This document shows positions 33,837 to 58,455 of a stretch of DNA of 64,000 nt, piece by piece. The position numbers and the translations under genes were made by a program. Under the pieces are notes generated by a model. The model did no database searches. It was not told where the DNA came from and worked only from the letters and a program-made list of their open reading frames with translations. The first letter of the stretch is position 1. Every line of letters begins with the position of its first letter. Source of the stretch: Escherichia coli (GTDB lineage Bacteria; Pseudomonadota; Gammaproteobacteria; Enterobacterales; Enterobacteriaceae). The DNA is taken from assembly GCF_036507355.1 (NCBI RefSeq), contig NZ_AP027877.1. One strand, written 5' to 3'.

Positions 33837-35336
33837 ATGCTAAATTTATTTGTTGGCCTTGATATATACACAGGGCTTTTGTTATTACTTGCTCTGGCAT
33901 TTGTGTTGTTCTACGAAGCAATCAATGGTTTTCATGACACGGCGAATGCGGTGGCAACCGTTATTTATACTCGTGCCATGCAGCCACAGCTTGCCGTGGT
34001 GATGGCGGCATTTTTTAACTTTTTTGGCGTGTTATTGGGCGGACTTAGCGTTGCCTATGCCATTGTCCATATGTTGCCAACCGATTTGTTGCTGAATATG
34101 GGGTCAACCCACGGCCTGGCGATGGTCTTTTCCATGCTGCTGGCGGCGATTATCTGGAACCTGGGAACGTGGTTCTTCGGTTTACCGGCCTCCAGTTCGC
34201 ACACCTTGATTGGTGCGATTATCGGCATCGGTTTAACCAACGCGCTGTTAACCGGCTCATCGGTGATGGATGCGTTAAACCTGCGTGAAGTGACCAAAAT
34301 TTTCTCCTCGCTGATTGTTTCCCCTATCATCGGCCTGGTCATTGCGGGAGGCCTGATATTCCTGCTGCGCCGTTTCTGGAGCGGAACGAAAAAGCGTGAC
34401 CGTATTCACCGCATTCCGGAAGATCGCAAAAAGAAAAAAGGCAAACGTAAGCCGCCATTCTGGACGCGTATTGCGCTGATTGTTTCCGCTGCGGGCGTGG
34501 CGTTTTCGCACGGCGCTAACGACGGGCAGAAAGGGATCGGCCTGGTGATGCTGGTACTGGTGGGGATTGCCCCTGCTGGCTTCGTCGTCAATATGAACGC
34601 GTCCGGCTATGAAATTACCCGTACCCGCGATGCCGTTACCAACTTCGAACACTACCTGCAACAGCATCCTGAACTGCCGCAGAAGTTGATTGCGATGGAA
34701 CCTCCATTGCCTGCGGCATCGTCTGATGGCATGCAAGTAACGGAGTTTCACTGTCATCCGGCAAATACCTTTGATGCGATTGCGCGCGTTAAAACGATGC
34801 TGCCAGGCAATATGGAAAGTTACGAGCCGTTAAGCGTGAGTCAGCGCAGCCAGCTGCGCCGCATTATGCTGTGCATCTCTGATACCTCCGCGAAGCTGGC
34901 GAAACTGCCAGGCGTCAGTAAAGAAGACCAGAACCTGCTGAAAAAACTTCGCAGCGATATGTTAAGCACCATTGAGTACGCTCCGGTGTGGATCATCATG
35001 GCAGTAGCACTGGCGCTCGGCATTGGCACCATGATTGGCTGGCGTCGTGTTGCGATGACCATCGGTGAGAAGATTGGTAAGCGCGGCATGACGTATGCGC
35101 AAGGCATGGCGGCACAAATGACGGCGGCAGTGTCTATCGGTCTTGCCAGTTATATTGGGATGCCCGTCTCCACAACACACGTCCTCTCGTCTGCAGTTGC
35201 AGGGACGATGGTGGTGGACGGCGGTGGGTTACAGCGTAAAACGGTAACCAGCATCCTGATGGCGTGGGTATTTACTTTACCGGCGGCGATTTTTCTTTCT
35301 GGTGGGCTGTACTGGATAGCATTGCAGTTGATTTAA
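33837..35336 (+). CDS. pitB: Low-affinity inorganic phosphate transporter PitB
   Basis: 499-aa polytopic [42 protein letters not shown]...; recognised as PitB. Confidence 0.95.
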
Positions 35337-35384: not shown

Positions 35385-36077
35385 CTAGTGATAACCACGC
35401 GCGGTCATAAAATCCGTAATCGCTTTTTCTGCATCAACCAACACCTGTTCCAGTGGCTGATTGGCATCGATATCAACCAGTTGTGCACCACCAAAGGTTA
35501 ACTGTGGCGTTATGGCAATCTTCCTCGCCAGCGATTCCCGTTTATGGTCGGGTTTACGCATGCAGGCAACTTCAAGGTCAACATTGAGTTTGATGACCAG
35601 ATCAGGCTTATGGCTCGCCATCCAGTGAAACGCTTTACGTTCCTGGCTTGCCAGCCATGAGACAAAACGACCACCTTCAACGTTAGGTGGGAACACCGTA
35701 CCATCGTAAGCGCCAGGAATTTGGTCCTGAGGATAACGGTCGGTTAGAACAATTAACCCGCGACGACGACAGGCAAGCATATGACGAAAGCGCAGTAAGC
35801 GACGGGCGACAAACGCTGTAATTACCAGCGCCGGAACTGGTCCAGGCAATTTTTTTGCTGTTTTCACCTGATTTCGTTCAATTGTTTTATGTAAGGATTT
35901 TCCCATCAACGGTAATTTTGTCACTGCACGACCGACATTTCCGGCCTGTTTTCCTAAATGAACTCTTTCGGCAGCACCATATTTTTCGACAACGGTAATG
36001 AGATGTTCACACACCGTTGACTTGCCTGAACCATCGCTACCAATAACGGCAATTAATGGAGGTGTTATTGACTGCAT
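35385..36077 (-). CDS. yghT: P-loop kinase-like protein YghT (thymidylate/nucleoside-kinase-like fold)
   Basis: 230-aa ORF; Walker [13 protein letters not shown]-type motif LTDRYPQ, C-terminal RKPDH motif shared with YghS/YghR. Confidence 0.85.
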
Positions 36078-36155
36078 GAATATATCCTTTAATTTAAATA
36101 TCCATTAAAAATATTTATTTGGTTAATATGTTTTTATGAAAGCGTAATTCAGGTC

Positions 36156-36183
36156 AATGTCACAATTAACCATTGTCACAATA
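36156..36183. promoter_or_regulatory. Candidate operator in the yghT/yghS divergent promoter region
   Basis: AATGTCACAATT and the perfect 11-bp palindrome ATTGT-C-ACAAT lie 16 bp apart in an AT-rich 173-bp divergent intergenic region. Confidence 0.3.
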
Positions 36184-36250
36184 AGGTTGAACGGATATTC
36201 TGAGCACGGACCACGTAATATTCAATACATTATTTGCTGCCGGGTTTTTC

Positions 36251-36964
36251 GTGAATCAACGTAATATGTCAATAATTAATTCCACGCCAGTGCGTGTTAT
36301 TGCCATTGTAGGATGTGATGGTTCAGGTAAATCGACCCTCACGGCAAGCCTGGTAAATGAACTGGCAGCAAGAATACCAGCAGAACACATTTATCTCGGG
36401 CAATCGTCCGGGCGAATTGGCGAATGGATTTCACAGCTCCCTGTTATTGGCGCACCTTTTGGGCGTTATCTGCGAAGTAAAGCGGCACATGTGCACGAAA
36501 AGCCCTCAACACCGCCTGGCAATATTACTGCGCTGGTTATCTATCTGCTTTCCTGCTGGCGGGCGTACAAGTTTCGCAAAATGTTGTGTAGAAGCCAGCA
36601 AGGCCATCTGCTCATCACCGACCGCTACCCGCAGGTTGAAGTGCCGGGTTTTCGCTTTGATGGCCCGCAATTGGCAAAAACCACGGGCGGTAACGGTTGG
36701 ATAAAAATGTTAAGGCAGCGCGAGTTGAAGCTGTACCAATGGATGGCGTCTTATTTACCCGTATTGTTGATTCGTCTTGGCATTGATGAACAAACCGCGT
36801 TTGCGCGTAAACCTGACCACCAACTGGCAGCGTTACAGGAAAAAATCGCCGTTACGCCGCAACTGACATTCAATGGCGCAAAGATCCTTGAACTGGATGG
36901 TCGGCAACCAGCCGATGAAATTCTGCAAGCGTCACTACGCGCAATTCACGCCGCGCTTTCCTGA
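36251..36964 (+). CDS. yghS: P-loop kinase-like protein YghS (paralog of YghT/YghR)
   Basis: 237-aa ORF; Walker A GCDGSGKST, ITDRYPQ, ARKPDH motifs. Confidence 0.85.
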   Translation: MNQRNMSIINSTPVRVIAIVGCDGSGKSTLTASLVNELAARIPAEHIYLGQSSGRIGEWISQLPVIGAPFGRYLRSKAAHVHEKPSTPPGNITALVIYLLSCWRAYKFRKMLCRSQQGHLLITDRYPQVEVPGFRFDGPQLAKTTGGNGWIKMLRQRELKLYQWMASYLPVLLIRLGIDEQTAFARKPDHQLAALQEKIAVTPQLTFNGAKILELDGRQPADEILQASLRAIHAALS

Positions 36965-36995
36965 TCACCAAAATGGATAGGGGATGATTTAACGA

Positions 36996-37754
36996 ATGGA
37001 TGCACTACAAACACAAACTGTTATTAGTACAACCGCGCCGCAGCCCAACTACATTCCGGGGCTGATTGCGGTGGTCGGGTGTGATGGCACCGGTAAATCC
37101 ACACTGACCACCGACCTGGTGAAATCGCTGCAACAACACTGGCAAACCGAGCGGCGCTATCTGGGGCTGCTCTCCGGCGAAGACGGCGACAAAATCAAAC
37201 GATTGCCGTTGGTTGGCGTCTGGCTGGAACGGCGACTGGCGGCCAAATCCTCGAAAACCCAAAGCATGAAAACCAAATCTCCGGCGCTATGGGCGGCGGT
37301 GATTATGTACTGCTTCTCGCTGCGAAGAATGGCGAATCTACGCAAGGTTCAGCGACTGGCGCAAAGTGGCGTTCTGGTGGTCAGCGATCGCTTCCCGCAG
37401 GCTGAAATTTCGGGCTTTTATTATGATGGACCGGGGATTGGCGTCGAACGTGCGACCGGGAAAATAAGCATGTTTCTGGCGCAGCGCGAACGGCGTTTAT
37501 ACCAACAAATGGCGCAATATCGCCCGGAATTAATTATTCGCTTGGGCATTGATATTGAGACTGCCATCTCCCGCAAGCCTGACCATGACTATGCCGAGCT
37601 GCAGGACAAAATCGGTGTTATGTCGACGATTGGCTATAACGGCACAAAAATTCTTGAGATTGATTCCAGAGCGCCCTACAGCGAAGTGCTGGAACAGGCA
37701 CAGAAGGCGGTTTCTCTGGTTGCCATCGTTTCTGACCGCCGAAGTTTAACTTAA
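36996..37754 (+). CDS. yghR: P-loop kinase-like protein YghR (paralog of YghT/YghS)
   Basis: 252-aa ORF; Walker A GCDGTGKST, VSDRFPQ, SRKPDH motifs. Confidence 0.85.
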   Translation: MDALQTQTVISTTAPQPNYIPGLIAVVGCDGTGKSTLTTDLVKSLQQHWQTERRYLGLLSGEDGDKIKRLPLVGVWLERRLAAKSSKTQSMKTKSPALWAAVIMYCFSLRRMANLRKVQRLAQSGVLVVSDRFPQAEISGFYYDGPGIGVERATGKISMFLAQRERRLYQQMAQYRPELIIRLGIDIETAISRKPDHDYAELQDKIGVMSTIGYNGTKILEIDSRAPYSEVLEQAQKAVSLVAIVSDRRSLT

Positions 37755-37799
37755 GGCTGGCGGGATACTTTTTACTATCAACGATAAGGTCAGGCTGAA

Positions 37800-39149
37800 T
37801 TGGCGGGTTTTAACATCAAACATTGGTTTGCAGATGGCGCGTTTCGCACCATTATTCGCAATAGCGCCTGGTTAGGCTCCAGTAATGTCGTGAGCGCCTT
37901 GCTGGGTCTGTTGGCGCTCTCGTGTGCCGGTAAAGGGATGACGCCCGCCATGTTTGGCGTACTGGTGATTGTGCAATCGTACGCCAAGTCGATCAGCGAT
38001 TTTATTAAGTTTCAGACATGGCAGCTGGTGGTTCAGTACGGAACACCAGCATTAACCAACAATAATCCGCAGCAATTTCGCAATGTCGTCTCATTTTCCT
38101 TCTCGCTGGATATCGTCAGCGGCGCGGTGGCGATTGTCGGCGGCATTGCCTTACTGCCATTCCTTTCCCATTCATTAGGTCTGGATGACCAAAGCTTTTG
38201 GCTGGCGGCGCTGTATTGCACGTTCATTCCTTCAATGGCTTCCTCCACGCCGACCGGCATTCTGCGTGCGGTAGATCGCTTTGATTTGATTGCTGTACAG
38301 CAGGCGACGAAACCTTTTCTGCGCGCAGCGGGGAGCGTCGCAGCCTGGTATTTTGACTTTGGTTTTGCGGGTTTTGTTATTGCCTGGTACGTGTCGAATC
38401 TGGTTGGCGGCACCATGTACTGGTGGTTTGCCGCGCACGAATTACGCCGCAGAAATATCCATAACGCCTTCAAATTGAATCTGTTTGAGTCTGCCCGACA
38501 CATTAAAGGCGCGTGGAGTTTTGTCTGGTCAACCAACATTGCCCACTCCATCTGGTCGGCGCGTAACTCGTGCAGCACAGTGTTGGTGGGGATCGTGTTA
38601 GGACCCGCTGCCGCCGGGTTATTTAAAATCGCCATGACATTCTTCGATGCCGCCGGAACGCCAGCGGGTTTGCTGGGTAAAAGTTTTTACCCAGAGGTGA
38701 TGCGTTTAGATCCGCGCACCACCAGACCGTGGTTGTTAGGCGTGAAGTCCGGTTTACTGGCGGGCGGAATCGGTATTCTGGTGGCGCTCGCGGTGTTGAT
38801 CGTCGGCAAGCCGCTCATTTCGCTGGTGTTTGGCGTTAAGTATCTCGAAGCGTATGACCTGATTCAGGTGATGCTGGGCGCAATTGTGATCTCGATGCTG
38901 GGTTTCCCGCAGGAGTCATTGCTATTGATGGCGGGAAAACAGCGCGCTTTTCTCGTGGCGCAAACCATCGCCTCAATCGGCTACATCGTATTGCTGTTCA
39001 TGTTCTGTCATCTGTTTGGTGTGCTGGGAGCAGCGTTTGCTTACTTCGGTGGGCAATGTCTGGACGTGGCGCTCTCGTTAATTCCAACCTTAAAGGCATT
39101 TTTTCAGCGCCATTCCTTGCTTTATAACGCAGCCGGAGAGAAATCCTGA
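37800..39149 (+). CDS. yghQ: Polysaccharide-biosynthesis/MOP-flippase-family inner membrane protein YghQ (apparently full length)
   Basis: 449-codon ORF from a TTG at 37800 (true start may be an internal ATG); highly hydrophobic multi-TM protein; I recall K-12 YghQ as shorter. Confidence 0.8.
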   Translation: MAGFNIKHWFADGAFRTIIRNSAWLGSSNVVSALLGLLALSCAGKGMTPAMFGVLVIVQSYAKSISDFIKFQTWQLVVQYGTPALTNNNPQQFRNVVSFSFSLDIVSGAVAIVGGIALLPFLSHSLGLDDQSFWLAALYCTFIPSMASSTPTGILRAVDRFDLIAVQQATKPFLRAAGSVAAWYFDFGFAGFVIAWYVSNLVGGTMYWWFAAHELRRRNIHNAFKLNLFESARHIKGAWSFVWSTNIAHSIWSARNSCSTVLVGIVLGPAAAGLFKIAMTFFDAAGTPAGLLGKSFYPEVMRLDPRTTRPWLLGVKSGLLAGGIGILVALAVLIVGKPLISLVFGVKYLEAYDLIQVMLGAIVISMLGFPQESLLLMAGKQRAFLVAQTIASIGYIVLLFMFCHLFGVLGAAFAYFGGQCLDVALSLIPTLKAFFQRHSLLYNAAGEKS

Positions 39150-39973
39150 TGATGAGAAAATATTTCCCGCTTGAGGCGAGCGAGCATCTATTTGTTGCGA
39201 TTGAGGAAGATGATGTTGTTGATGCCCAGGTCAGTTTGCCGCCGACTATCGCACTAAGTTGTACCACCGAAATCATCCATGATAATTACGCGTTATGCCT
39301 GCAATTCTGGCTCAATGGCGTTGATCGTCAGGAATTACTTCGTTTAATTCGCAAACAAGCCAAAGGCGATGAGCTGACGACAGACGAGCGTAAACAGTTT
39401 AAATACATGCGAGCGCGCTACAAGCATCTACGTTTTGCACAACGGCTGTATTTAAAAAAGCATCAGGCCAGATTTTTATTCGGCAAAACGACCGTTTTTC
39501 TGGGACGTTTTCAGGACGGATTTCGTAACGGTAAGAAAAATATTGTGTCGTATTACGGCAACCTGTTACGAATTTATTTAAGCTCTCCGGTCTGGTCGTT
39601 GGTGAACTATTCATTACGCCATAGCCAGTTAGAAAGCGTAAGCGGTTTTATTGCCTATCGGCAAAAGCAAATGCATACCCTGAAAGAGATTATTGCCAAA
39701 CCGCGACTAACCGGCAGGGAATTTCATGATGTGCGAAAAATCATCAGCCAGCAGGTTTCTTATTACGACACCTTAAGATCGCTTGATCCTGAAAATAAAG
39801 AGGCGTTACAGATTTCCCGTTTCCTCGCCGCCATTAATGGCCTGATGGGGGATCAACACGACGACATGGTGGCGGATGATATGGAAAACCGCCAGTCGTA
39901 TGATGCACCGGTGGCGCTGGATAGCGATATTCGCCAGCGCTTAGAGCTGCTGATTTCGCGTTTTCCGCTATAA
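39149..39973 (+). CDS. Hypothetical basic protein (274 aa), no family recognised
   Basis: ATG overlaps the yghQ stop (TGATG), implying translational coupling; ORF MMRKYFPLEASEHLFVAIEEDDVV...; within a same-strand gene array. Confidence 0.65.
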   Translation: MMRKYFPLEASEHLFVAIEEDDVVDAQVSLPPTIALSCTTEIIHDNYALCLQFWLNGVDRQELLRLIRKQAKGDELTTDERKQFKYMRARYKHLRFAQRLYLKKHQARFLFGKTTVFLGRFQDGFRNGKKNIVSYYGNLLRIYLSSPVWSLVNYSLRHSQLESVSGFIAYRQKQMHTLKEIIAKPRLTGREFHDVRKIISQQVSYYDTLRSLDPENKEALQISRFLAAINGLMGDQHDDMVADDMENRQSYDAPVALDSDIRQRLELLISRFPL

Positions 39974-39981
39974 CCGGAGCA

Positions 39982-40545
39982 ATGATGTCATCTCGTTTGA
40001 TTATTGCGCTGATTATCATGCTCTTAGCCCCGGGTGTGCAGGCACACAATTTCGTCACTGGCAAAACGGTTACCCCTGTTTATATTCAGGAAGGCGGCGA
40101 GCTGCTTCTGAATAGCGACGACGAAATTCACTACCAAAAGTGGAACAGCACACAATTGGCGGGAAAAGTCCGAATTATCCAGTATATCGCCGGGCGTAAG
40201 TCGGCGAAGAAAAAGAACTCACTGTTAATTAAAGCGGTTGAAGCGGCAAACTTTCCGCAGGATCGTTTTCAGCCCACCACCATTGTGAACACCGATGATG
40301 CCATCTTTGGTACTGGCTATTTTGTTGTTGGCAAAATCGAAAAAAATAAACGCCACTATCCGTGGGCGCAATTCGTTATTGACGGCAATGGACAGGGACG
40401 CGTTGCCTGGCGCTTGCCGGAGCAGAGTTCAACCATTCTGGTGCTGAATAAAGCCGGGCAAATTCAGTGGGCAAAGGACGGCAGCCTGACGCCGGAAGAG
40501 GTAGATCATGTTATTGCGCTGGCGCAGAAACTGATCAATGAATAA
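39982..40545 (+). CDS. YtfJ-family periplasmic protein (paralog of E. coli YtfJ)
   Basis: 187-aa ORF with signal peptide; HNFVTGKTVTPVYIQEGGELLLNSDDEIHYQKWNSTQLAGKVRIIQYIAGR closely parallels my recollection of the YtfJ sequence. Confidence 0.7.
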   Translation: MMSSRLIIALIIMLLAPGVQAHNFVTGKTVTPVYIQEGGELLLNSDDEIHYQKWNSTQLAGKVRIIQYIAGRKSAKKKNSLLIKAVEAANFPQDRFQPTTIVNTDDAIFGTGYFVVGKIEKNKRHYPWAQFVIDGNGQGRVAWRLPEQSSTILVLNKAGQIQWAKDGSLTPEEVDHVIALAQKLINE

Positions 40546-40575
40546 AAAATTCAAAGGATTGAGGGCGTTAGTGAG

Positions 40576-41646
40576 ATGAAGCTGGTTGAACACTACATCA
40601 TGCGTGGTACGCGCCGTCTGGTGCTGATTATCGTCGGTTTTCTGATCTTTATTTTCGCCAGCTACTCCGCACAGCGTTATCTGACCGAAGCGGCAAATGG
40701 GACATTAGCTCTTGATGTTGTGCTGGATATCGTTTTCTACAAAGTGCTGATTGCACTGGAGATGTTGTTACCTGTTGGTCTGTATGTGTCAGTTGGCGTG
40801 ACGCTAGGGCAGATGTATACCGACTCGGAAATTACCGCTATCTCTGCGGCGGGGGGCAGTCCGGGACGCTTGTACAAAGCCGTTCTTTATCTGGCGATAC
40901 CGCTAAGTATTTTTGTCACCCTTCTGTCGATGTATGGTCGTCCGTGGGCTTATGCGCAGATTTATCAACTGGAGCAGCAGTCGCAGTCGGAGCTGGATGT
41001 TCGCCAGTTGCGGGCAAAGAAATTTAACACTAACGATAACGGACGAATGATCCTTTCGCAGACGGTTGATCAGGATAATAATCGCCTGACTGACGCGCTG
41101 ATTTATACTTCTACTGCCAATCGAACCCGCATTTTCCGCGCCCGTTCGGTTGATGTGGTTGACCCATCACCCGAGAAACCGACCGTTATGTTGCACAACG
41201 GCACTGCCTATCTTCTCGATCATCAGGGGCGTGACGACAACGAACAGATCTACCGTAATCTGCAATTACATCTGAATCCGCTGGATCAAAGCCCTAACGT
41301 CAAACGCAAAGCGAAATCGGTCACGGAGCTGGCGCGCTCCGTCTTTCCAGCCGATCATGCCGAACTGCAATGGCGACAAAGCCGTGGCCTGACCGCATTG
41401 TTGATGGCGCTGCTGGCCATTTCATTAAGTCGGGTAAAACCGCGGCAAGGGCGATTTTCAACATTATTGCCACTGACGTTGCTGTTTATTGCCATTTTTT
41501 ATGGCGGCGACGTCTGCCGTACGCTGGTGGCTAACGGCGCGATTCCCCTCATTCCTGGTTTGTGGTTAGTACCCGGACTCATGCTAATGGGCCTGCTGAT
41601 GCTGGTCGCACGCGACTTCTCTTTGCTGCAGAAATTTTCCCGATGA
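40576..41646 (+). CDS. LptF/LptG-family (YjgP/YjgQ) permease paralog 1
   Basis: 356-aa ORF; N-terminal TM segments; region LEMLLPVGLYVSVGVTLGQMYTDSEITAISAAG parallels the LptF motif [29 protein letters not shown] recalled from memory. Confidence 0.8.
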   Translation: MKLVEHYIMRGTRRLVLIIVGFLIFIFASYSAQRYLTEAANGTLALDVVLDIVFYKVLIALEMLLPVGLYVSVGVTLGQMYTDSEITAISAAGGSPGRLYKAVLYLAIPLSIFVTLLSMYGRPWAYAQIYQLEQQSQSELDVRQLRAKKFNTNDNGRMILSQTVDQDNNRLTDALIYTSTANRTRIFRARSVDVVDPSPEKPTVMLHNGTAYLLDHQGRDDNEQIYRNLQLHLNPLDQSPNVKRKAKSVTELARSVFPADHAELQWRQSRGLTALLMALLAISLSRVKPRQGRFSTLLPLTLLFIAIFYGGDVCRTLVANGAIPLIPGLWLVPGLMLMGLLMLVARDFSLLQKFSR

Positions 41647-42722
41647 ATGTTTTCAGTCGCTATTTAATCCGTCATCTCTTTCTCGGTTTTGCCGCCGCCG
41701 CAGGGCTATTGCTGCCGCTTTTTACCACCTTCAACCTGATTAACGAACTGGATGATGTCAGCCCGGGCGGTTATCGCTGGACTCAGGCGGTGCTGGTGGT
41801 GCTAATGACCTTACCGCGCACACTTGTCGAACTTTCGCCATTTATCGCCTTATTGGGAGGGATTGTCGGCCTGGGGCAGCTATCGAAAAACAGTGAGCTT
41901 ACCGCCATTCGCAGCACGGGGTTTTCTATCTTCCGTATTGCACTGGTGGCGCTGGTTGCCGGGATATTGTGGACTGTTTCGTTAGGCGCGATAGATGAGC
42001 GGGTAGCGTCGCCATTGCAGCAACAGGCGCTGCAAATCAAATCGACCGCCACCGCGTTGGGGGAGGACGATGACATTACCGGCAATATGCTGTGGGCCAG
42101 GCGCGGCAATGAATTTGTGACGGTGAAATCGCTGAATGAGCAGGGCCAGCCTGTGGGCGTGGAGATTTTTCATTATCGTGACGATCTCTCGCTCGAATCC
42201 TACATTTATGCACGCAGTGCCACCATTGAAGACGACAAAACGTGGATCCTGCATGGTGTGAATCATAAAAAATGGCTGAATGGCAAAGAAACGCTGGAAA
42301 CATTAGATAATCTTGCCTGGCAATCGGCCTTCACCAGTATGGATCTTGAAGAGCTATCGATGCCGGGGAATACTTTTTCTGTCCGTCAGCTTAATCATTA
42401 CATCCATTATTTGCAGGAAACCGGGCAACCCAGCAGCGAATACCGCCTTGCACTGTGGGAAAAACTGGGGCAACCCATCCTGACCCTGGCGATGATTTTG
42501 CTGGCTGTGCCGTTTACCTTTAGCGCCCCGCGCTCGCCAGGGATGGGTAGCCGTCTCGCTGTAGGCGTCATCGTTGGCTTACTCACCTGGATCAGCTATC
42601 AAATCATGGTCAATTTGGGATTGCTATTTGCGTTAAGCGCACCTGTTACCGCGCTCGGTTTACCGATAGCGTTTGTGCTGGTGGCGTTGAGCCTGGTGTA
42701 TTGGTATGACAGACAACATTAA
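41643..42722 (+). CDS. LptF/LptG-family (YjgP/YjgQ) permease paralog 2
   Basis: ORF 41562-42722 trimmed to ATG 41643 (MNVFSRYLIRHLFLGF..., 359 aa) overlapping the upstream stop (ATGA); same architecture as paralog 1. Confidence 0.8.
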   Translation: MNVFSRYLIRHLFLGFAAAAGLLLPLFTTFNLINELDDVSPGGYRWTQAVLVVLMTLPRTLVELSPFIALLGGIVGLGQLSKNSELTAIRSTGFSIFRIALVALVAGILWTVSLGAIDERVASPLQQQALQIKSTATALGEDDDITGNMLWARRGNEFVTVKSLNEQGQPVGVEIFHYRDDLSLESYIYARSATIEDDKTWILHGVNHKKWLNGKETLETLDNLAWQSAFTSMDLEELSMPGNTFSVRQLNHYIHYLQETGQPSSEYRLALWEKLGQPILTLAMILLAVPFTFSAPRSPGMGSRLAVGVIVGLLTWISYQIMVNLGLLFALSAPVTALGLPIAFVLVALSLVYWYDRQH

Positions 42723-42723
42723 A

Positions 42724-42750
42724 CCCGCCGTGGCGCAACACCACGGCGGG
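42724..42750. terminator. Hairpin between convergent operons (putative bidirectional terminator)
   Basis: CCCGCCGTGG-CGCAACA-CCACGGCGGG perfect 10-bp stem in the 34-bp gap between the two convergent stops. Confidence 0.5.
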
Positions 42751-42756
42751 CTCACA

Positions 42757-43929
42757 TTACTGCTTCAGAGTAGCAAATGCCTGAATGATGGCATCGATTT
42801 GCTCACGACTGTGGGCAGCGTTTACGCTACAGCGCAGCAGCGTGATGCCTGCAGGCGCGGCAGGTGGCAGGATAAGATTCACATAAACGCCCAGCGAAAT
42901 AAGCTCGCGCCAGATGCGTAAACCTTCCTCTTTCGAACCGATTATTACCGGCACTACCGGACTAATATGTGAACTTAACTCATAACTCAGCTTTTGCAGC
43001 CCGTCATACAGATGGTTGGCATTATCCATCAGTTTTTGCCGCAACTCTGGTTGAGTGGCAATGGTTCTTAACGACGAGCGCACGGTTGCAATGCAGGAAG
43101 GAGAAGGGGAGGCGGTAAAAATATACGGACGACTGCCGTAGCGCAGCACTTCCATCGCTTCCGAACCCACGGCAAAACCACCAATAGAAGCCAGGCTTTT
43201 ACTGAAGGTGCCAACGATAATATCCACATCATCTTCAACGCCAACGGCTTCAACCAGCCCGCGCCCCGTTGCGCCTAACACGCCAAACGAGTGAGCTTCA
43301 TCGACAATTAAATATCCGCCGAGACGACGTTTGATATCAACAATTTCCGCCAGCGGCGCAACGTCACCGAGCATACTGTAGATGCCCTCAACGATGATAA
43401 TCGCCTCTTTCGCCCGTTCACCGAGGCGAACCATGCGCCGTTCCAGATCTTTAGCATCGTTATGGCGGAAACGAATAATTTCCGCGCCACCGAGAGAACA
43501 GGCGTCATAAATACTGGCGTGGCTGTCAGCATCCAGTAACACCACGGCGTTATGGTCGGCAAGTGCGCTGATGACGCCTAAATTAGCGGTATAACCGGTT
43601 GAAAAAACGATAGCGGTAGGGCGATTGAAAAACTCAGCAATCTCTTTCTCTAACGCCAGATGCGGCGCATAACTGCCGTTTGCCATACGAGAACCGGTGG
43701 TGCCGGTGCCTTGGGCCGCTAACGCTGCCTGACCTTCGGCGATGGCATCATGATTGAAGGTTAATCCGAGATAATTATTGGTCCCGGCCAGAATCACTTT
43801 TTTATTGCCGATCCGGCCTTCGGTGGCGGAATACACTTCATCAATACAGGTGCCAAACGGTGTTAACCCGTTGTCACTAAATTGCAGACGCTCGCCAGCA
43901 AGGCGCGCATATTTATCGTATAGCCCCAT
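42757..43929 (-). CDS. PLP-dependent alpha-oxoamine synthase, serine-palmitoyltransferase-like
   Basis: 390-aa ORF; DEAHSFGVLG and GTFSKSLASIGGF (PLP-lysine motif of the AONS/SPT/KBL family); ATG overlaps the stop of the upstream ACP gene. Confidence 0.85.
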   Translation of the reverse strand: MGLYDKYARLAGERLQFSDNGLTPFGTCIDEVYSATEGRIGNKKVILAGTNNYLGLTFNHDAIAEGQAALAAQGTGTTGSRMANGSYAPHLALEKEIAEFFNRPTAIVFSTGYTANLGVISALADHNAVVLLDADSHASIYDACSLGGAEIIRFRHNDAKDLERRMVRLGERAKEAIIIVEGIYSMLGDVAPLAEIVDIKRRLGGYLIVDEAHSFGVLGATGRGLVEAVGVEDDVDIIVGTFSKSLASIGGFAVGSEAMEVLRYGSRPYIFTASPSPSCIATVRSSLRTIATQPELRQKLMDNANHLYDGLQKLSYELSSHISPVVPVIIGSKEEGLRIWRELISLGVYVNLILPPAAPAGITLLRCSVNAAHSREQIDAIIQAFATLKQ

Positions 43930-44177
43930 TATTTATTCTCCAGCCATGGAAGTAGAGTTTCCATTAATTGCGCAGGGGTTTTGACATCCAGCAGAATATT
44001 AATAGGAATGGAAATATCGAATCTGTCTTCCAGCATCATTAAGAGATCCATCACTTTGATCGACTCCAGGCCAAGATCGTTGACGAGATCGCTGTCGGGC
44101 TTAATTTCCACACCGTTTTCGACCAAATCCTGTAAACAGGAAAGGATGTAATCCATTACTATTTCACGATTTACCAT
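43929..44177 (-). CDS. Acyl carrier protein (dedicated, non-AcpP)
   Basis: 82-aa acidic ORF with DLGLESIKVMDL phosphopantetheine-attachment-type serine motif. Confidence 0.8.
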   Translation of the reverse strand: MVNREIVMDYILSCLQDLVENGVEIKPDSDLVNDLGLESIKVMDLLMMLEDRFDISIPINILLDVKTPAQLMETLLPWLENK

Positions 44178-44208
44178 AGAAACGTTAACACACCTTTAAA
44201 CAAGACAA

Positions 44209-45123
44209 TCAAAATAGCCCGTTGCGTAATGCGTGTTCCAGGCTAATCCCGGGAAACCAATTAATATCTTCAGAAATACGGTTATTACTTGCCGACCAGT
44301 CGGCGTGGGTTAATTCACGAATTTTCGAGCGGGTCAGCATAGGTTCTTTACCTGCCAGGCGACTCAACGCGGTACTGATATCCGCAAGGCAGGTGAGTAC
44401 CGGCAGAGGAATGCCAACCATTCGCACGGAACCACAACGGGCGTCGGCGGCAAGTTGCTGTACGCGTTGCCAGTCATAGCCGCCAGCGACGCCATCGCAT
44501 AATTCATAGGTTTGCGTCTGTACAGTTTCGGCGCTTAACCACTGACCCACTGCTTGCGCAAAATCGGTGACATGCAGGAAAGAGAGCTGTGTATCTGGTG
44601 CACCAAGTCGTGGCAGCAGGCCGCGCAGCATCCAGTCAAACAGCGGTTTTAACTCTTTATCGCCGGGACCATACACGGCTGTCGGGCGAAAAACGCCCAG
44701 CGTAATTTCGTCAGCCATTGCCGTCAGCCGTTGTTCGGCGACGTGTTTGGAATTTGCGTACCAGGAGAGCTCGGGATGGCGCGCCGCCAGCGAAGAGATA
44801 AACAGAAAACGTTGGCAAAAGCCGCTCTCTTTTGCTGCTTGCATCAGGCGCAGGCTGCCGTCAACGTTACAGTGGGTAAAAATCTCTTCTTTGTGTCCGC
44901 GCACTTGCCCGGCGCAATGGACCACCGCGCTGGCTCCGGCAACCAGTTCGCTAAGCGAATGTGTATCTTCCAGCGAACCGCGCACCCAAGTAAGATTATC
45001 ATTGACGTGAGCGCGGGCAGTACGCGTCAATGCGCGAACGTGAAAGCCGCGGGCGAGCAGGTTATCGATAATATATTTACCGATAAAACCGGTAGCGCCC
45101 GTCACCGCGACAGTTTGATTCAT
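44209..45123 (-). CDS. NAD(P)-dependent epimerase/dehydratase-family (extended SDR) reductase
   Basis: 304-aa ORF; N-terminal VTGATGFIGKYI Rossmann motif; YANSK (YxxxK) catalytic motif; start overlaps the upstream stop (ATGA). Confidence 0.8.
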   Translation of the reverse strand: MNQTVAVTGATGFIGKYIIDNLLARGFHVRALTRTARAHVNDNLTWVRGSLEDTHSLSELVAGASAVVHCAGQVRGHKEEIFTHCNVDGSLRLMQAAKESGFCQRFLFISSLAARHPELSWYANSKHVAEQRLTAMADEITLGVFRPTAVYGPGDKELKPLFDWMLRGLLPRLGAPDTQLSFLHVTDFAQAVGQWLSAETVQTQTYELCDGVAGGYDWQRVQQLAADARCGSVRMVGIPLPVLTCLADISTALSRLAGKEPMLTRSKIRELTHADWSASNNRISEDINWFPGISLEHALRNGLF

Positions 45124-46841
45124 GCCAGGGATTCCTGCACATGAAGGCTTGCAGCATAAGCCTTCTGATAACGTTTTTTCGCTTCCGCACGGGCAGGCTT
45201 GCCGGAGGACGTTCGGGGAATGCTGTGGGGCGGCAACAGATCGATAGCCGCGGTCACGCCAAATTCGCTTTGGATCCGTGCTGCCAGCGCGTGGATAAGC
45301 TGCCCGCGACGTTCTTCATCGCTGATCCGACACTGGATCTGCAAAATGATTTTTTCCTGGACGGTAACAAAAGCAATCGCATCGCCAGAATGAATTTCCG
45401 GTTCCTGTTCCGCTATATATTCAATATCCTGCGGCCAGATATTACGGCCACGAATAATAATCAGATCTTTAATGCGTCCGGTGACATACAGATAACCATC
45501 CAGCAGATAACCGAGGTCGCCAGTGTCTAACCAGCCCGTCGCGGCAATCTCGTCTTGCGAAGCCTGGTCGCCAAAGTAACCGCTCATCAGACTGGGACCG
45601 GAGATGCAAATATGGCCTACCACACGTTCCGCGACCGGCATACCTGCTTGATTGCGGATTTCAATACCATGTTCCGGCAACGCTTTGCCGCAGTTGACGA
45701 AAGTCGATACGGCGCGTGTCTCTGCACCCGGCGCGACGGCTTTACCCTGATATTCGAGGATGTCGCGATCCACTTCGTTAACTACAACCCCGGAGGCTTC
45801 ATCAGAGAAGCTGACAGCCAGCGCATTTTCTGCCAGGCCGTAGCACGGCATGAAAGTTTTATCGTCAAAGTTAACCTGACGGAAACATTCAGCGAATTGA
45901 TGGAGTTGTTCTGCGGAGATGGGTTCTGCACCAATACCAGCGACGCGCCAGCAGGAAAGATCCAGTTCAGCGAGATCTTTTTCATTCACGCGGCGCTGGC
46001 ACAATTCATAGCCAAACGGCGGCGCAACGGAAACGGTGCCGCGATTTTTACTGATCAATTTAAGCCATTGCAGAGGACGCATGGCAAAATCCTGAGTGCG
46101 CAAATAATCTACTGAAAGTTGCGTGGCGACGGGGGTCAGGAGAAAGCCGACCAGTCCCATATCATGGTAGAAAGGCAGCCAGGAGACGCAGCGGTCGCCA
46201 GGGCGTAATTTAATGCCGTCGTGGCTTATAGCACGTAGATTAGCCATCACTTCGCGATGGGTGATAATGACGCCACGGGGAAAACGGGTGCTGCCGGAGG
46301 TGTACTGGAGGTAGGCGATATCGTTCGGAACTGGACGCTGGAGCGCAACATCGGCTTCCGGTAATGCCTTAAACCAGGCGTGGCTTAAAACATGTAATTC
46401 GGGGTTGTCATGCGTCGCGGCATTGACCAGTGGCAACCACTCATCACCAGTGATAATGGCTGCGGGCTGGCAACTTGTCAGTAAACCCTGCAATTTGGCG
46501 CTCCAGGAATCCCGCTGACCAACGCCCATTGGAATCGCCAACGGGACGGCGACTAAGCCGGCATACTGGCAGGCAAAAAAAGCCTCTACGAACCCGCTAC
46601 TTGTTTCGGCAATCAGTGCCACGCGATCGCCTTTTTTCAGGTTCAGCGATAACAACCGCTTCGCACCAGCTTCGGCACGCGCTTTTAACGTCTGATATTC
46701 CAGTTGATCTTCAAGTTGGCAACGTCTGTCATAAAAATTCATTCCAGCGCTACTCAGAGCGGCGTAGTCCAAAGCATCAACCAGCGTTGGAAAATCGGCA
46801 TAGCGTATAGGTAGGGAATGCGTAAAGATTTTATTAGACAT
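45120..46841 (-). CDS. Fatty acyl-AMP ligase / acyl-ACP synthetase (adenylate-forming enzyme)
   Basis: ORF 45120-46850 (GTG) trimmed to ATG 46839-46841 (MSNKIFTHSL...); AMP-binding core motifs YTSGSTRFPRGV and TGDLGY...GRIKDLIIIRGRNI. Confidence 0.85.
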   Translation of the reverse strand: MSNKIFTHSLPIRYADFPTLVDALDYAALSSAGMNFYDRRCQLEDQLEYQTLKARAEAGAKRLLSLNLKKGDRVALIAETSSGFVEAFFACQYAGLVAVPLAIPMGVGQRDSWSAKLQGLLTSCQPAAIITGDEWLPLVNAATHDNPELHVLSHAWFKALPEADVALQRPVPNDIAYLQYTSGSTRFPRGVIITHREVMANLRAISHDGIKLRPGDRCVSWLPFYHDMGLVGFLLTPVATQLSVDYLRTQDFAMRPLQWLKLISKNRGTVSVAPPFGYELCQRRVNEKDLAELDLSCWRVAGIGAEPISAEQLHQFAECFRQVNFDDKTFMPCYGLAENALAVSFSDEASGVVVNEVDRDILEYQGKAVAPGAETRAVSTFVNCGKALPEHGIEIRNQAGMPVAERVVGHICISGPSLMSGYFGDQASQDEIAATGWLDTGDLGYLLDGYLYVTGRIKDLIIIRGRNIWPQDIEYIAEQEPEIHSGDAIAFVTVQEKIILQIQCRISDEERRGQLIHALAARIQSEFGVTAAIDLLPPHSIPRTSSGKPARAEAKKRYQKAYAASLHVQESLA

Positions 46842-46850
46842 ATACACCAC

Positions 46851-47211
46851 GAAAAAATTGGATATCCAAAATAAAATGACAATAATGCGGTGGATTATAT
46901 AGGCATAAAAGATAAATGAGATAGTATTTTCATCGGTGTGAAAATGAACATTGATTTAAATAATGAGTTTAAGTTTTTTGTTTTTATTGTGAATGATATT
47001 TAATTTATGAATATATTAAGAAGAAGCCTTGTCCGGTCGCCTTAAATCGACAAAAGGCATTGTGGCGCTTCTGCGTAGTCGCTGACCCTATCGTAATCAT
47101 TAATAAATACTATTTATTCGTCGTTTGTATTCATTGGGTTGATTATTAAGATGCCGTTCGTTGCTGTTGCAACCTGTTTTTCACCGTTAATTATTTGTTA
47201 TCCACAGAACT
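46851..47211. promoter_or_regulatory. AT-rich divergent promoter region between the FAAL operon and yghO
   Basis: 361-bp noncoding stretch, visibly AT-rich with A/T tracts (e.g. TTTAAATAATGAGTTTAAGTTTTTTGTTTTTATTGTGAATGATATTTAATTTATGAATATATTAAG), flanked by divergent starts. Confidence 0.4.
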
Positions 47212-48354
47212 ATGGAATGCGATCTGCTGATGATCAAAATTGAAAAAGTAATTAATAAAAATGACCTTAAGGCATTTATTGCTTTTCCGTCATCACTTTA
47301 TCCCGATGATCCAAACTGGATACCCCCTTTATTCATTGAACGCAGCGAGCATTTGTCTGCGAAGAATCCGGGGACGGACCATATCATCTGGCAGGCGTGG
47401 GTGGCAAAAAAAGCGGGGCAGATAGTTGGGCGTATTACCGCGCAAATAGATACCTTACACCGCGAGTGTTACGGCGAAGATACCGGTCATTTCGGCATGA
47501 TTGACGCCATTGATGATCCGCAGGTTTTTGCCGCGTTGTTTGGCGCAGCGGAAGCGTGGTTGAAGTCACAAGGTGCAAGTAAGATCAGCGGGCCTTTCAG
47601 CCTGAATATCAATCAGGAAAGCGGATTACTGATTGAAGGTTTTGACACACCACCCTGTGCGATGATGCCACACGGCAAACCGTGGTATGCCGCGCATATT
47701 GAACAACTGGGTTATCACAAAGGCATTGATTTACTGGCGTGGTGGATGCAGCGAACCGATCTCACTTTCTCTCCGGCGCTAAAAAAACTGATGGTTCAGG
47801 TGCGCAAAAAGGTGACCATTCGCTGCATCAATCGCCAGCGGTTTGCCGAAGAGATGCAGATCCTGCGTGAGATTTTCAACTCTGGCTGGCAGCACAACTG
47901 GGGATTTGTGCCGTTTACCGAACATGAATTCGCGACCATGGGCGACCAACTTAAATATCTGGTGCCGGACGATATGATCTACATCGCTGAGATTGATTCT
48001 GCACCTTGCGCGTTTATTGTCGGCTTGCCAAACATCAACGAGGCGATTGCCGATCTGAACGGATCGCTCTTTCCCTTCGGCTGGGCAAAATTGCTGTGGC
48101 GTTTGAAAGTCAGCGGTGTGCGAACTGCGCGAGTACCGCTGATGGGCGTGCGCGACGAGTATCAGTTCAGCCGCATCGGCCCGGTGATTGCGCTGTTATT
48201 GATTGAAGCCTTACGCGATCCGTTTGCCCGCCGGAAGATCGATGCGCTGGAGATGTCATGGATCCTCGAAACCAATACAGGCATGAATAACATGCTGGAA
48301 CGCATTGGGGCGGAGCCGTACAAGCGTTACCGATTGTATGAAAAGCAGATTTAA
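47212..48354 (+). CDS. yghO: YghO-family protein, putative GNAT-like N-acyltransferase, intact
   Basis: 380-aa ORF MECDLLMIKIEKVINKNDLKAFIAFPSSLYPDDPNWIPPLF...; recognised as YghO family, which I recall as a disrupted pseudogene in K-12; acyltransferase assignment is from family knowledge, not from motifs I can verify. Confidence 0.7.
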   Translation: MECDLLMIKIEKVINKNDLKAFIAFPSSLYPDDPNWIPPLFIERSEHLSAKNPGTDHIIWQAWVAKKAGQIVGRITAQIDTLHRECYGEDTGHFGMIDAIDDPQVFAALFGAAEAWLKSQGASKISGPFSLNINQESGLLIEGFDTPPCAMMPHGKPWYAAHIEQLGYHKGIDLLAWWMQRTDLTFSPALKKLMVQVRKKVTIRCINRQRFAEEMQILREIFNSGWQHNWGFVPFTEHEFATMGDQLKYLVPDDMIYIAEIDSAPCAFIVGLPNINEAIADLNGSLFPFGWAKLLWRLKVSGVRTARVPLMGVRDEYQFSRIGPVIALLLIEALRDPFARRKIDALEMSWILETNTGMNNMLERIGAEPYKRYRLYEKQI

Positions 48355-56118: not shown

Positions 56119-57801
56119 ATGGTTACCTGGACCCAAATGTATATGCCGATGGGAGGACTGGGGCTATCCGCTCTGGTTGCCCTGATCCCAATAATATTCT
56201 TCTTCGTTGCACTTGCGGTATTACGTCTGAAAGGACATGTCGCCGGAGCGATAACCCTTATATTATCTATCCTGATTGCGATATTCGCCTTTAAAATGCC
56301 GATTGATATGGCATTTGCTGCTGCGGGCTATGGCTTTATTTATGGTTTATGGCCAATTGCGTGGATTATTGTCGCGGCGGTGTTCCTGTATAAATTAACC
56401 GTTGCCAGCGGACAGTTCGATATTATCCGCAGCTCGGTTATCTCCATCACCGACGATCAGCGTTTGCAGGTGTTACTGATTGGTTTCTCCTTTGGTGCGT
56501 TGCTGGAAGGAGCGGCTGGCTTTGGTGCGCCGGTGGCGATTACCGGTGCGCTGCTGGTGGGCCTGGGCTTCAAACCGTTATACGCGGCGGGGCTGTGTCT
56601 GATTGCCAATACTGCGCCGGTGGCGTTTGGTGCGTTGGGCGTGCCGATTCTGGTCGCCGGTCAGGTAACGGGAATCGATCCGTTCCACATTGGCGCAATG
56701 GCGGGACGTCAGTTACCGTTCCTGTCGGTTCTTGTGCCGTTCTGGCTGGTAGCAATGATGGACGGCTGGAAAGGGGTGAAAGAGACGTGGCCAGCGGCGC
56801 TGGTTGCTGGGGGAAGCTTCGCTGTCACTCAGTTCTTTACCTCTAATTATATTGGTCCGGAACTGCCGGATATTACTTCGGCGCTGGTGAGTATCGTCTC
56901 ACTCGCTTTATTCCTTAAAGTCTGGCGGCCGAAAAATACCGAAACGGCAATCAGCATGGGACAATCCGCAGGTGCGATGGTGGTAAATAAGCCATCTTCT
57001 GGCGGTCCCGTACCTTCAGAATATAGTCTGGGGCAAATCATTCGAGCGTGGTCACCGTTTTTAATCTTAACGGTGCTGGTCACCATCTGGACCATGAAGC
57101 CGTTTAAAGCGTTATTTGCTCCGGGCGGCGTGTTTTATTCACTGGTGATTAATTTCCAGATCCCTCATTTGCATCAACAAGTGTTGAAAGCGGCACCCAT
57201 TGTCGCCCAACCAACGCCAATGGATGCGGTGTTTAAATTCGACCCCCTCTCGGCTGGCGGCACCGCTATTTTTATTGCGGCGATTATCTCTATCTTCATC
57301 CTCGGCGTGGGCATCAAGAAAGGGATTGGCGTCTTTGCCGAAACGCTAATTAGTCTGAAGTGGCCGATATTGTCGATTGGCATGGTGCTGGCGTTCGCCT
57401 TCGTCACCAACTATTCCGGCATGTCCACCACGCTGGCGCTGGTACTGGCAGGTACAGGCGTGATGTTCCCGTTCTTCTCACCGTTCCTCGGTTGGCTGGG
57501 GGTATTCCTTACCGGCTCGGACACTTCTTCAAACGCCCTGTTTGGTTCACTGCAATCGACCACGGCGCAGCAAATCAACGTCTCTGACACTCTGCTGGTG
57601 GCAGCAAATACCAGCGGCGGCGTAACTGGCAAGATGATCTCCCCGCAATCTATCGCCGTGGCCTGCGCCGCGACGGGCATGGTGGGCCGAGAATCTGAAC
57701 TGTTCCGCTACACCGTGAAGCACAGTCTGATTTTTGCCAGCGTTATCGGCATTATCACGCTGCTGCAGGCGTATGTGTTTACTGGAATGTTAGTCTCGTA
57801 A
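56119..57801 (+). CDS. glcA: Glycolate/lactate permease (LctP family)
   Basis: 560-aa polytopic [37 protein letters not shown]...; recognised as GlcA. Confidence 0.95.
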
Positions 57802-57810
57802 GTCAATAAT

Positions 57811-57850
57811 GCCGGATGAAGGTAAATATCATCCGGCTTTCCATTTGTTT
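57811..57850 (+). terminator. Rho-independent terminator after glcA
   Basis: Hairpin GCCGGATGA-AGGTAAATA-TCATCCGGC followed by TTTCCATTTGTTTG. Confidence 0.6.
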
Positions 57851-58170
57851 GTCGTTTATCTCGCCAGGGAACCGTTTTTACGATTGGCTTCTTAATACAT
57901 AGTCTCCGTTTTACAATGCAAATTGTTTAATATTTATACGTCTGAGCTTCTGTGCTGGTTATAAAGCACCCACTTTCATGAGATCAATTTTAGTATGTTA
58001 TTACATTGCTACGTCTGTTCTTTTCATGACGAATGGCGTTTTTTCTCTTGTTTGTATTTTTCACGAGAGCAATGAGCAGATCAAAATTCCCAAAAACATA
58101 AGATTATTCGCAATGAATCGCCACGGGTTTAACAGACACCTCAGAGTCATTTAAGATGGCTTAAAGAGAG

Positions 58171-58455
58171 GTGCCCATGAGCGGTAAGCGTTATCCCGAA
58201 GAGTTTAAAATTGAAGCAGTCAAACAGGTTGTTGATCGCGGTTATTCTGTTGCCAGCGTTGCAACACGTCTCGATATCACCACCCACAGCCTTTACGCCT
58301 GGATAAAGAAGTACGGTCCGGATTCTTCCGCTAATAAAGAACAGTCAGATGCTCAGGCCGAGATCCGCCGTCTCCAGAAAGAGCTGAAGCGGGTTACCGA
58401 CGAACGGGACATATTAAAAAAAGCCGCGGCGTACTTCGCAAAGCTGTCCGACTGA
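58171..58455 (+). CDS. IS3-family transposase OrfA (HTH domain)
   Basis: 94-aa ORF MPMSGKRYPEEFKIEAVKQVVDRGYSVASVATRLDITTHSLYAWIKKYG... with leucine-zipper-like C-terminus typical of IS3 OrfA. Confidence 0.9.
   Translation: MPMSGKRYPEEFKIEAVKQVVDRGYSVASVATRLDITTHSLYAWIKKYGPDSSANKEQSDAQAEIRRLQKELKRVTDERDILKKAAAYFAKLSD

Follow-up and report, generated by a model that had tools for sequence, protein, structure and literature searches.

A probable ceramide-type lipid locus between pitB and glcC in Escherichia coli, with a likely Lpt-type export arm and a candidate head-group module containing a CHAD-fold protein

Escherichia coli serves as the reference for bacterial membrane lipids, and the usual teaching is that it has no sphingolipids, so what is a set of ceramide genes doing in its chromosome? 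The question is raised by a 64,000-nucleotide stretch of E. coli contig NZ_AP027877.1 (assembly GCF_036507355.1), referred to here as the window, in which a 13-gene locus at 35385-48354 is bounded by pitB and glcC. A first-pass annotation made from the letters alone had described a minus-strand yghT, a seven-gene plus-strand array, a convergent four-gene minus-strand operon and a divergent yghO, and had read the whole as a locus for synthesis and export of a sphingoid or ceramide-like lipid. Our open reading frame (ORF) map of 33-51 kb of the window reproduces every ORF, position, spacing and orientation as well as the two flanking genes, and the proposed function is supported by profiles, orthology and published E. 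coli biochemistry. We consider it highly probable that the locus is the Escherichia/Enterobacterales version of the alpha-, beta- and gamma-proteobacterial sphingolipid cluster, making a ceramide-type lipid and sending it towards the outer membrane. Neither the locus nor its interpretation is a new discovery, both having been published before; across thousands of E. coli genomes RefSeq carries the label 'spt: serine palmitoyltransferase' for the gene. What is new here is the CHAD-fold identity of the 274-aa protein and the likely head-group module that it forms with YghT, YghS and YghR.

The biosynthetic half can be followed enzyme by enzyme, and its first two steps have been published for the E. 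coli proteins themselves. AasR, using ATP, loads a free fatty acid onto AcpR, a dedicated acyl carrier protein (ACP), and Spt condenses acyl-AcpR with L-serine to give 3-oxo-sphinganine. In profile searches five curated NCBIfam models were passed, and the initial FAAL, SPT-like, YtfJ-like and LptF/LptG-like assignments hold. Spt scores 595.6 bits with NF047599 (cut-off 500), the serine palmitoyltransferase (SPT) model and the only equivalog that it passes, and conserves GTFSKS, DADSH and VDEAHS, with the pyridoxal phosphate-lysine motif and the His and Asp motifs intact; it is 47% identical to the crystallised S. paucimobilis SPT 2jg2. AasR, of the FAAL type, scores 873.5 bits with NF006624 (cut-off 600) and is 44-49% identical to the gene in the same position in distant spt loci. 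AcpR, encoded immediately upstream of spt, matches ACP models below their cut-offs only (e.g., 35.6 bits vs 71), which fits a specialised ACP. A search of its sequence for the D-S/T-L phosphopantetheine-attachment motif found none, 'GLES' standing where housekeeping ACPs have 'DSL'.

Published biochemistry bears directly on this core. Padilla-Gómez et al. 2022 (PMC9386255) gave the names yghO/aca, aasR, epi, acpR and spt to the E. coli BL21(DE3) genes ECD_02850-ECD_02854. They place E. coli B, both BL21(DE3) and ETEC B7A, among the SPT-containing bacteria, and according to them the five dihydroceramide genes form a single cluster in C. crescentus and E. coli BL21 alone. The same paper reports that E. 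coli AcpR bears 4'-phosphopantetheine, that E. coli AasR selectively acylates it, and that 3-oxo-sphinganine is formed by E. coli Spt from L-serine, with acyl-AcpR preferred.

For the steps that follow, orthology suggests that YghO (bCerS) would N-acylate and the extended-SDR protein CerR/epi would reduce the 3-ketone, giving dihydroceramide; the order of N-acylation and ketone reduction is disputed in the literature. CerR/epi carries GATGFIG at residue 9 and YANSK at residue 122, and the Y, S and K of YxxSK are invariant in 63 orthologs. YghO shows a tandem GNAT fold in its predicted structure, matches Caulobacter bCerS over its full length at 42-43% identity, and is 42-53% identical over its full length to its counterparts in distant spt loci (Nitrospira, Geobacter, Methylotenera, Caulobacter). 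A synteny scan of one genome per species, with adjacency counted within 10 kb of spt, gave 80 spt loci, 79 of which hold an ACP homolog; among the 42 with full flanks, yghO is found in 36, epi in 37 and aasR in 38, and the five-gene core stays with spt out to Nitrospira, Geobacter, Methylotenera and Caulobacter. Because the gene order in Caulobacter metagenome-assembled loci (flippase, aasR, epi, acpR, spt, about 5 kb of other genes, lptF2, lptG2, yghO homolog) reproduces the published CC_1166 to CC_1154 arrangement (PMC11324152), YghO is, by sequence and position, the bCerS ortholog.

Could the product instead be another alpha-amino-ketone-derived lipid or signal, such as a CAI-1-like compound or an N-acyl amino-alcohol? 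Alpha-oxoamine synthases are versatile, and Spt also matches the BioF, Kbl and CqsA models, albeit at lower scores. With the SPT model as the sole equivalog passed, the in vitro product and acyl-AcpR preference described above (PMC9386255), and all four partner genes orthologous to Caulobacter ceramide genes, we regard this as highly improbable.

How would such a lipid leave the inner membrane? We think it likely, by analogy, that the E. coli route consists of flipping by YghQ followed by extraction by LptB2-F2G2: from synteny and fold, YghQ would flip the lipid across the inner membrane, and LptF2 and LptG2, powered by the housekeeping LptB, would extract it for outer-membrane transfer. LptF2 scores 318 bits with TIGR04407 (cut-off 230) and LptG2 305 bits with TIGR04408 (cut-off 240); both align over their full length with PDB chains of their namesakes, at E 1e-20 to 1e-32 and E 1e-34 to 1e-41 respectively, and both keep the coupling-helix motif (SEIT in LptF2, SELT in LptG2). 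This SE(I/L)T segment we take to hold the glutamate that docks onto LptB. All ORFs of the locus are accounted for and none is an ABC ATPase or LptB paralog; nor is there an LptC-like or unassigned ORF, hence no LptC2. The idea that YghT/S/R might be the missing ATPase was rejected, as they have only Walker A in common with ABC proteins and are present in loci without lptF2/lptG2. The position of lptF2/lptG2 beside spt, the retained coupling-helix motif and the absence of an LptB paralog from the locus match the Caulobacter data, in which LptF2 and LptG2 form a complex, bind housekeeping LptB and are deletable only without spt (Uchendu et al. 2026, bioRxiv 10.64898/2026.04.12.717747). The same preprint draws the E. 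coli UTI89 sphingolipid operons with lptF2/lptG2 paralogs in its Figure 2B and states that lptC2 is apparently confined to Caulobacter, where the cluster was earlier described as holding second copies of LptC, LptF and LptG with a putative flippase (Olea-Ozuna et al. 2024, PMC11324152).

YghQ weakly matches the MOP flippase model NF007773 (E 2e-8). In the Caulobacter loci the gene just before aasR, at the CC_1166 position (PMC11324152), encodes a protein with which YghQ aligns over 98% of its length at 27% identity. The YtfJ-family protein passes TIGR01626 (212 bits vs 151), begins with a signal-peptide-like sequence ending in VQA, and among the 80 spt loci is encoded only in the Enterobacterales versions.

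A sceptic might hold that the yghS-lptG2 arm is unrelated to the spt operon, a set of nucleotide-kinase genes and lipopolysaccharide (LPS) or polysaccharide export genes that just happens to adjoin it. RefSeq names the genes in just that way ('dTMP kinase', 'lipopolysaccharide biosynthesis protein', 'lptF', 'lptG'), and the LptF and LptG equivalog models are indeed passed. Yet 43 of the 80 species loci, Nitrospira and Caulobacter included, have lptF2/lptG2 no more than 10 kb from spt, the Caulobacter counterparts can be deleted only in a strain without spt (bioRxiv 10.64898/2026.04.12.717747), and yghTSR, yghQ and the CHAD gene adjoin spt in Xanthomonadales and Betaproteobacteria in rearranged orders; the dTMP-kinase scores, moreover, fall far below the cut-off. 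A chance neighbourhood of this kind seems to us very unlikely. We note as an aside that the plain 'lptF' and 'lptG' labels given by RefSeq/PGAP to these paralogs, since they pass the equivalog models, are likely misleading.

The less charted part of the locus lies between synthesis and export. The 274-aa protein, correctly placed as an ORF in the first-pass annotation and there called unknown, can now be recognised as a CHAD-fold protein. It gives no match to the Pfam CHAD model (PF05235) even at E up to 10, and is a CHAD member by transitive and fold evidence only: two of 12 divergent relatives match Pfam CHAD at E <=1e-3 and six at E <=0.1, and the protein has the characteristic CHAD helical-bundle fold. 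Comparison with solved CHAD domains, at 11-17% identity, returned values of 13.7 and 216 for the Ricinus CHAD protein (6qv5), 11.4 and 190 for Streptomyces PptA (6rn5) and 11.4 and 202 for Chlorobium CHAD (3e0s). Across 17 family sequences, down to 29% identity, R60, R88, K92, H93, R95, H105, H193, R196, H237 and R262 are invariant.

Its partners YghT, YghS and YghR are, judged by their sequences, three anciently diverged thymidylate-kinase-fold proteins. Their mutual identity is 34-44% (YghS is 37% identical to YghT and 44% to YghR); a PDB search with their family profile gives weak matches to thymidylate kinases (E 1e-5 to 1e-3) that span most of the chain, and in Pfam YghR gives P-loop matches and a weak Thymidylate_kin match only. 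Among 50 sequences from the three paralog groups, conservation of the P-loop GxDGxGKST is 90% or higher, and no sequence departs from D131-R132 in DRYPQ or from RK-DH in RKPDH; each paralog forms its own 1:1 orthologous group, found next to spt in Xanthomonadales and Betaproteobacteria. That they might be true dTMP kinases was rejected, the TIGR00041 scores (24.4, 24.7 and 32.0 bits for YghT, YghS and YghR) lying far below the cut-off of 83.25. The RefSeq/PGAP label 'dTMP kinase' for YghT and YghS (24-25 bits vs 83) is likely misleading.

Kinase genes of the yghT/S/R type occur within 10 kb of spt in 23 of the 80 loci, 19 with the CHAD-like gene and four without it; the CHAD-like gene is never there without the kinases, and 57 loci have neither, counts that include 17 related Enterobacterales and reduce to only about 4-5 independent lineages. 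In Betaproteobacteria and Xanthomonadales the module has as neighbours an LmtA-like lipid-phosphate O-methyltransferase, a PAP2 lipid phosphatase, a GT4 glycosyltransferase and an OlsC/LpxO-like acyl hydroxylase, enzymes whose targets are lipid phosphates and acyl chains; these extra genes are absent in E. coli and suggest lineage-specific decoration of the same lipid. Two further observations come from metagenomic DNA away from spt. A 53-kb contig with no spt inside 10 kb of the genes (L087:8159-10885) has a pair of YghT/S/R-like kinase genes directly against a CHAD-like gene and one for a GT2 glycosyltransferase, and elsewhere (L083:1339-3366 and L085:10001-12931; P0247 and P0219) divergent CHAD-like members are fused to APH/choline-kinase-like kinase domains, a recurrent combination of kinase and CHAD-like parts.

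In Caulobacter the head group, a phosphoglycerate on ceramide, is the business of CpgA-D. The Caulobacter ORFs between spt and lptF2, a YegS/DAGK-like kinase among them, gave no tblastn match in the 64-kb window at E <1e-3, and the window holds no counterpart of CpgA-D, including the DAGK-type ceramide kinase CpgB. Because the CHAD-fold protein co-occurs with YghT/S/R and E. coli is without the Caulobacter cpg genes, the head group of the E. coli lipid is probably different from that of Caulobacter and phosphorylated. Synteny and fold would assign head-group modification to the cytoplasmic YghT/S/R and the CHAD-fold protein. Phosphorylation is the most plausible form of it: YghT/S/R would phosphorylate the lipid, and a phosphate-rich group or donor would be handled by the CHAD-fold protein. 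That the module makes some lipid-linked phosphate is a tentative proposal, to which we would give something short of an even chance. The fuller version is doubtful and we offer it as speculation: YghT/S/R and the CHAD-fold protein would be an unrecognised head-group module replacing CpgA-D and yielding a new anionic sphingolipid, a ceramide with at least one phosphate and possibly pyro- or oligophosphate or polyphosphate-phosphorylated, in E. coli and other gamma- and beta-proteobacteria. If true, roughly three-quarters of E. coli strains could place a new anionic sphingolipid in the outer membrane by way of a second Lpt extractor.

The main alternative for these four proteins is that they act on a soluble phosphate, polyphosphate or nucleotide pool rather than on a lipid, for instance by making or delivering an activated head-group donor or by using polyphosphate as phosphoryl donor. 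Inorganic polyphosphate is what characterised CHAD domains bind, and CHAD proteins that stand alone sit in operons with polyphosphate kinases or phosphatases (PMC6537752); the kinases have a nucleotide-monophosphate kinase fold, the kinase-CHAD pair is also seen away from spt beside glycosyltransferases, a cytidylyltransferase adjoins a family member in a further locus (L088), and a phosphate transporter gene, pitB, adjoins the locus in other enterobacteria. On the other hand, all three kinases score below curated nucleotide-kinase cut-offs, their genes stay near spt in the 23 loci counted above, and their neighbours in the distant loci are membrane lipid-phosphate enzymes (PAP2 phosphatase, LmtA-like methyltransferase). 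We hold a purely soluble role to be improbable. As for pitB itself (33837-35336, low-affinity phosphate transporter), it adjoins yghT in five other loci from four genera (Pseudocitrobacter, Hafnia, Citrobacter youngae and Pluralibacter; L004, L005, L006, L015, L016) at 75-84% identity. Perhaps pitB moves together with the locus, a point of note should the head group be rich in phosphate.

Is the locus maintained, and is it used? In a population sample of 5426 complete E. coli genomes, with presence of the full 13 kb set at >=80% coverage, the full 13 kb is present in 4051 and the 8.4-kb core in 4063 (about 75%), always chromosomal and single-copy. A mobile or plasmid origin was rejected, the sole 'plasmid' matches being records of 0.35 to 4.9 Mb. 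The first-pass statement that K-12 has an IS5 copy, a disrupted yghO and a shorter yghQ here proved accurate: K-12-type genomes are without window positions 38869-47251 (8.4 kb) and have IS5 in their place, with the left breakpoint in yghQ, which is truncated, and the right one 40 nt inside yghO, so that the aasR/yghO intergenic region is also gone. From the sequence comparison, K-12 lost the whole core by an IS5-associated 8.4-kb deletion, and about 25% of complete genomes, K-12 included, are without the core. As to the strain in hand, its core (38869-47251) is matched at >=99% identity by none of the 5426 genomes, the best being an environmental isolate from the Netherlands at 98.7%; complete genomes thus include no close representative of the lineage that the window belongs to.

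In comparison with a divergent Escherichia lineage (dS 0.13-0.63), dN/dS is 0.03-0.12 for all 13 genes (0.07 for yghT), with 0.02-0.03 for the flanking pitB and glcC in the same comparison. All 13 genes are under purifying selection and the locus is maintained, not decaying; the dN/dS values rule out a decaying remnant. All 13 genes are found together again, their proteins 50-88% identical, in Pseudocitrobacter, Hafnia, Serratia, Shimwellia, Mangrovibacter, Citrobacter youngae, Pluralibacter, Cedecea and Rosenbergiella.

Several points weigh against the account given here, and expression is the most serious of them. The literature searched holds no report of a sphingolipid in wild-type E. coli, and BL21(DE3) empty-vector extracts had no detectable SPT activity or 3-oxo-sphinganine despite an intact chromosomal locus (PMC9386255); the locus may therefore be silent in laboratory culture. 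Within the pathway, the putative flippase assignment of YghQ comes from weak profile matches, YghT/S/R match thymidylate kinases weakly, CHAD domains are known as binders of inorganic polyphosphate and not of lipids, the module's co-occurrence with spt spans few independent lineages, and the head-group step is argued solely from fold, synteny and neighbours.

The caveat on expression can be put as an explanation in its own right, namely that the locus is intact and effectively silent, forming no sphingolipid under ordinary conditions and active only in a specific niche or stress. AT-rich promoters are typical of silenced E. coli accessory loci. The promoter regions here are AT-rich (GC 0.42-0.46), and the loss of the core from about a quarter of genomes without obvious harm points the same way as the BL21 extracts and the silence of the literature. 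Against it stand the strong purifying selection, with dN/dS near that of pitB and glcC, and the retention of the whole 13-gene arrangement in nine other Enterobacterales genera. In BL21 supplied with precursors by over-expression, moreover, compounds co-migrating with sphinganine and ceramide were seen, which the authors ascribe possibly to chromosomal epi (ECD_02852) and yghO (ECD_02850) (PMC9386255). We judge general silence unlikely, if deserving of serious weight, and it is compatible with a locus for synthesis and export of a ceramide-type lipid. K-12 papers that mention yghQRST or yghO (an mlaA screen, an FlhDC SELEX study and a lysine acetyltransferase screen) hold no functional information.

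The layout is that of compact transcription units (Table 1). Successive gaps in the plus-strand array from yghS to lptG2 are 31, 45, -1, 8, 30 and -4 nt; the minus-strand operon converges on this array, and yghO diverges from the operon across 361 bp. Promoter and terminator scans of the locus found nothing above shuffled sequence except the 16-bp hairpin between the converging operons, which is likely a bidirectional terminator; in the yghT/yghS intergenic region the promoter scan gave one weak sigma-70-like match (36173-36201), no better than chance. A search of the intergenic regions for riboswitches or other known RNAs found no Rfam family match. The start of aasR is ambiguous (46809-46850): the longest ORF, from a GTG at 46850, encodes 576 aa, and the RefSeq product in ATCC 8739 has 562 aa, 14 codons fewer. 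Beyond the locus, downstream of glcA, lies a variable region (58512-63633) with genes of the defence type, namely DUF262/GmrSD-like, YaaW/DUF3944 and helix-turn-helix regulator genes and a type I restriction-modification M subunit. Positions 57500-64000 reach >=80% coverage in none of the complete E. coli genomes, and the closest genome has a Flp/Tad pilus cluster there.

Table 1. Features of the 13-gene locus, with coordinates in the window, and extra genes beside the module in other lineages (coordinates in their own loci)
Feature	Coordinates	Strand	Description
yghT	35385..36077	-	thymidylate-kinase-fold P-loop protein, paralog 1 of 3; putative head-group kinase
yghT/yghS divergent intergenic region	36078..36250	.	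presumed promoters; GC dip ~0.45
yghS	36251..36964	+	thymidylate-kinase-fold P-loop protein, paralog 2
yghR	36996..37754	+	thymidylate-kinase-fold P-loop protein, paralog 3
yghQ	37800..39149	+	multi-pass MOP/Wzx-type membrane protein; putative lipid flippase
274-aa ORF	39149..39973	+	divergent stand-alone CHAD-fold protein
YtfJ-family gene (YtfJ2)	39982..40545	+	periplasmic protein, ytfJ paralog
lptF2	40576..41646	+	LptF paralog; permease half of putative sphingolipid extractor
lptG2	41643..42722	+	LptG paralog, other permease half; RefSeq start, 4-nt overlap with lptF2 stop
hairpin	42720..42754	.	16-bp stem, 10 of 16 pairs G-C, between converging operons
spt	42757..43929	-	serine palmitoyltransferase
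acpR	43929..44177	-	dedicated acyl carrier protein, 82 aa, 1-nt overlap with spt start
epi/cerR	44209..45123	-	extended-SDR NAD(P)-dependent reductase; ketone-reduction step
aasR	45120..46850	-	FAAL-type acyl-AcpR synthetase
aasR/yghO divergent intergenic region	46851..47211	.	presumed promoters and regulation; AT-rich, GC 0.42
yghO	47212..48354	+	bCerS/aca ortholog, tandem-GNAT N-acyltransferase
PAP2, LmtA-like, GT4 and OlsC/LpxO-like extra genes	L031:16992-17681, L060:18710-19399, L032:15881-16621, L060:15730-16830, L069:6039-6797		absent in E. coli

Why should this matter beyond annotation? An intact, selected pathway that K-12 has lost is kept by about 75% of complete genomes, those of BL21, UTI89-type and many clinical strains among them, a fact already known to specialists. 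Whether and when E. coli makes the lipid, which head group it would carry, and whether it would share the Lpt bridge with LPS all bear on the outer-membrane barrier, on susceptibility to polymyxin-type agents and on host signalling. The observation of CHAD and kinase genes side by side gives the head-group question concrete genes, and the residual value of this work lies in that testable hypothesis and in the annotation corrections.

Set beside known systems, the locus is the same as ECD_02850-ECD_02854 and its surroundings in E. coli BL21(DE3), E. coli B aligning with all 13 kb at 98.2% identity and holding the same genes; Padilla-Gómez et al. 2022 (PMC9386255), in the part available, deals with the five core genes only and not the yghT-lptG2 arm, and reports no native E. 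coli lipid. With the Caulobacter cluster (CC_1152-CC_1168, CCNA_01210-01226) it has in common the five ceramide genes, a MOP-type putative flippase upstream of aasR, LptF2/LptG2 and the absence of a second LptB (PMC11324152; bioRxiv 10.64898/2026.04.12.717747). The homology to the Caulobacter proteins that the first-pass annotation proposed is borne out at 54% identity for Spt, 44% for AasR, 43% for bCerS and 32-34% for CerR (against the gene in the same operon slot), with 27% for the flippase and 23-25% for LptF2/G2. Unlike the Caulobacter cluster, E. coli has no CpgA, CpgB (DAGK-type ceramide kinase), CpgC, CpgD (cytidylyltransferase) or LptC2, and it has YghT/S/R, the CHAD-fold protein and the YtfJ paralog, which Caulobacter's does not. 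Compared with Sphingomonas SPT (2JG2, 2X8U), E. coli Spt is likewise a soluble alpha-oxoamine synthase with conserved catalytic motifs, but in published assays prefers a dedicated acyl-ACP over acyl-CoA (PMC9386255). LptF2 and LptG2 have the family, topology and aligned coupling-helix region of the LptB2FG LPS extractor, but are divergent paralogs (E 1e-20 to 1e-41) that sit in a sphingolipid locus and lack an ATPase of their own; K-12 has the housekeeping pair only. YghT/S/R resemble thymidylate kinase in the P-loop, the DRY-type motif and an alignment over most of the chain, whereas their P-loop-to-DRY segment is longer and family-specific, and they come as three conserved paralogs, always in a lipid-locus context. 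The CHAD-like protein, finally, differs from known CHAD domains (Ricinus 6QV5, Streptomyces PptA 6RN5, Chlorobium 3E0S, E. coli YgiF; PMC6537752) in being missed by Pfam, and its partners are thymidylate-kinase-fold proteins in a lipid locus rather than the recognised polyphosphate enzymes of known CHAD systems.

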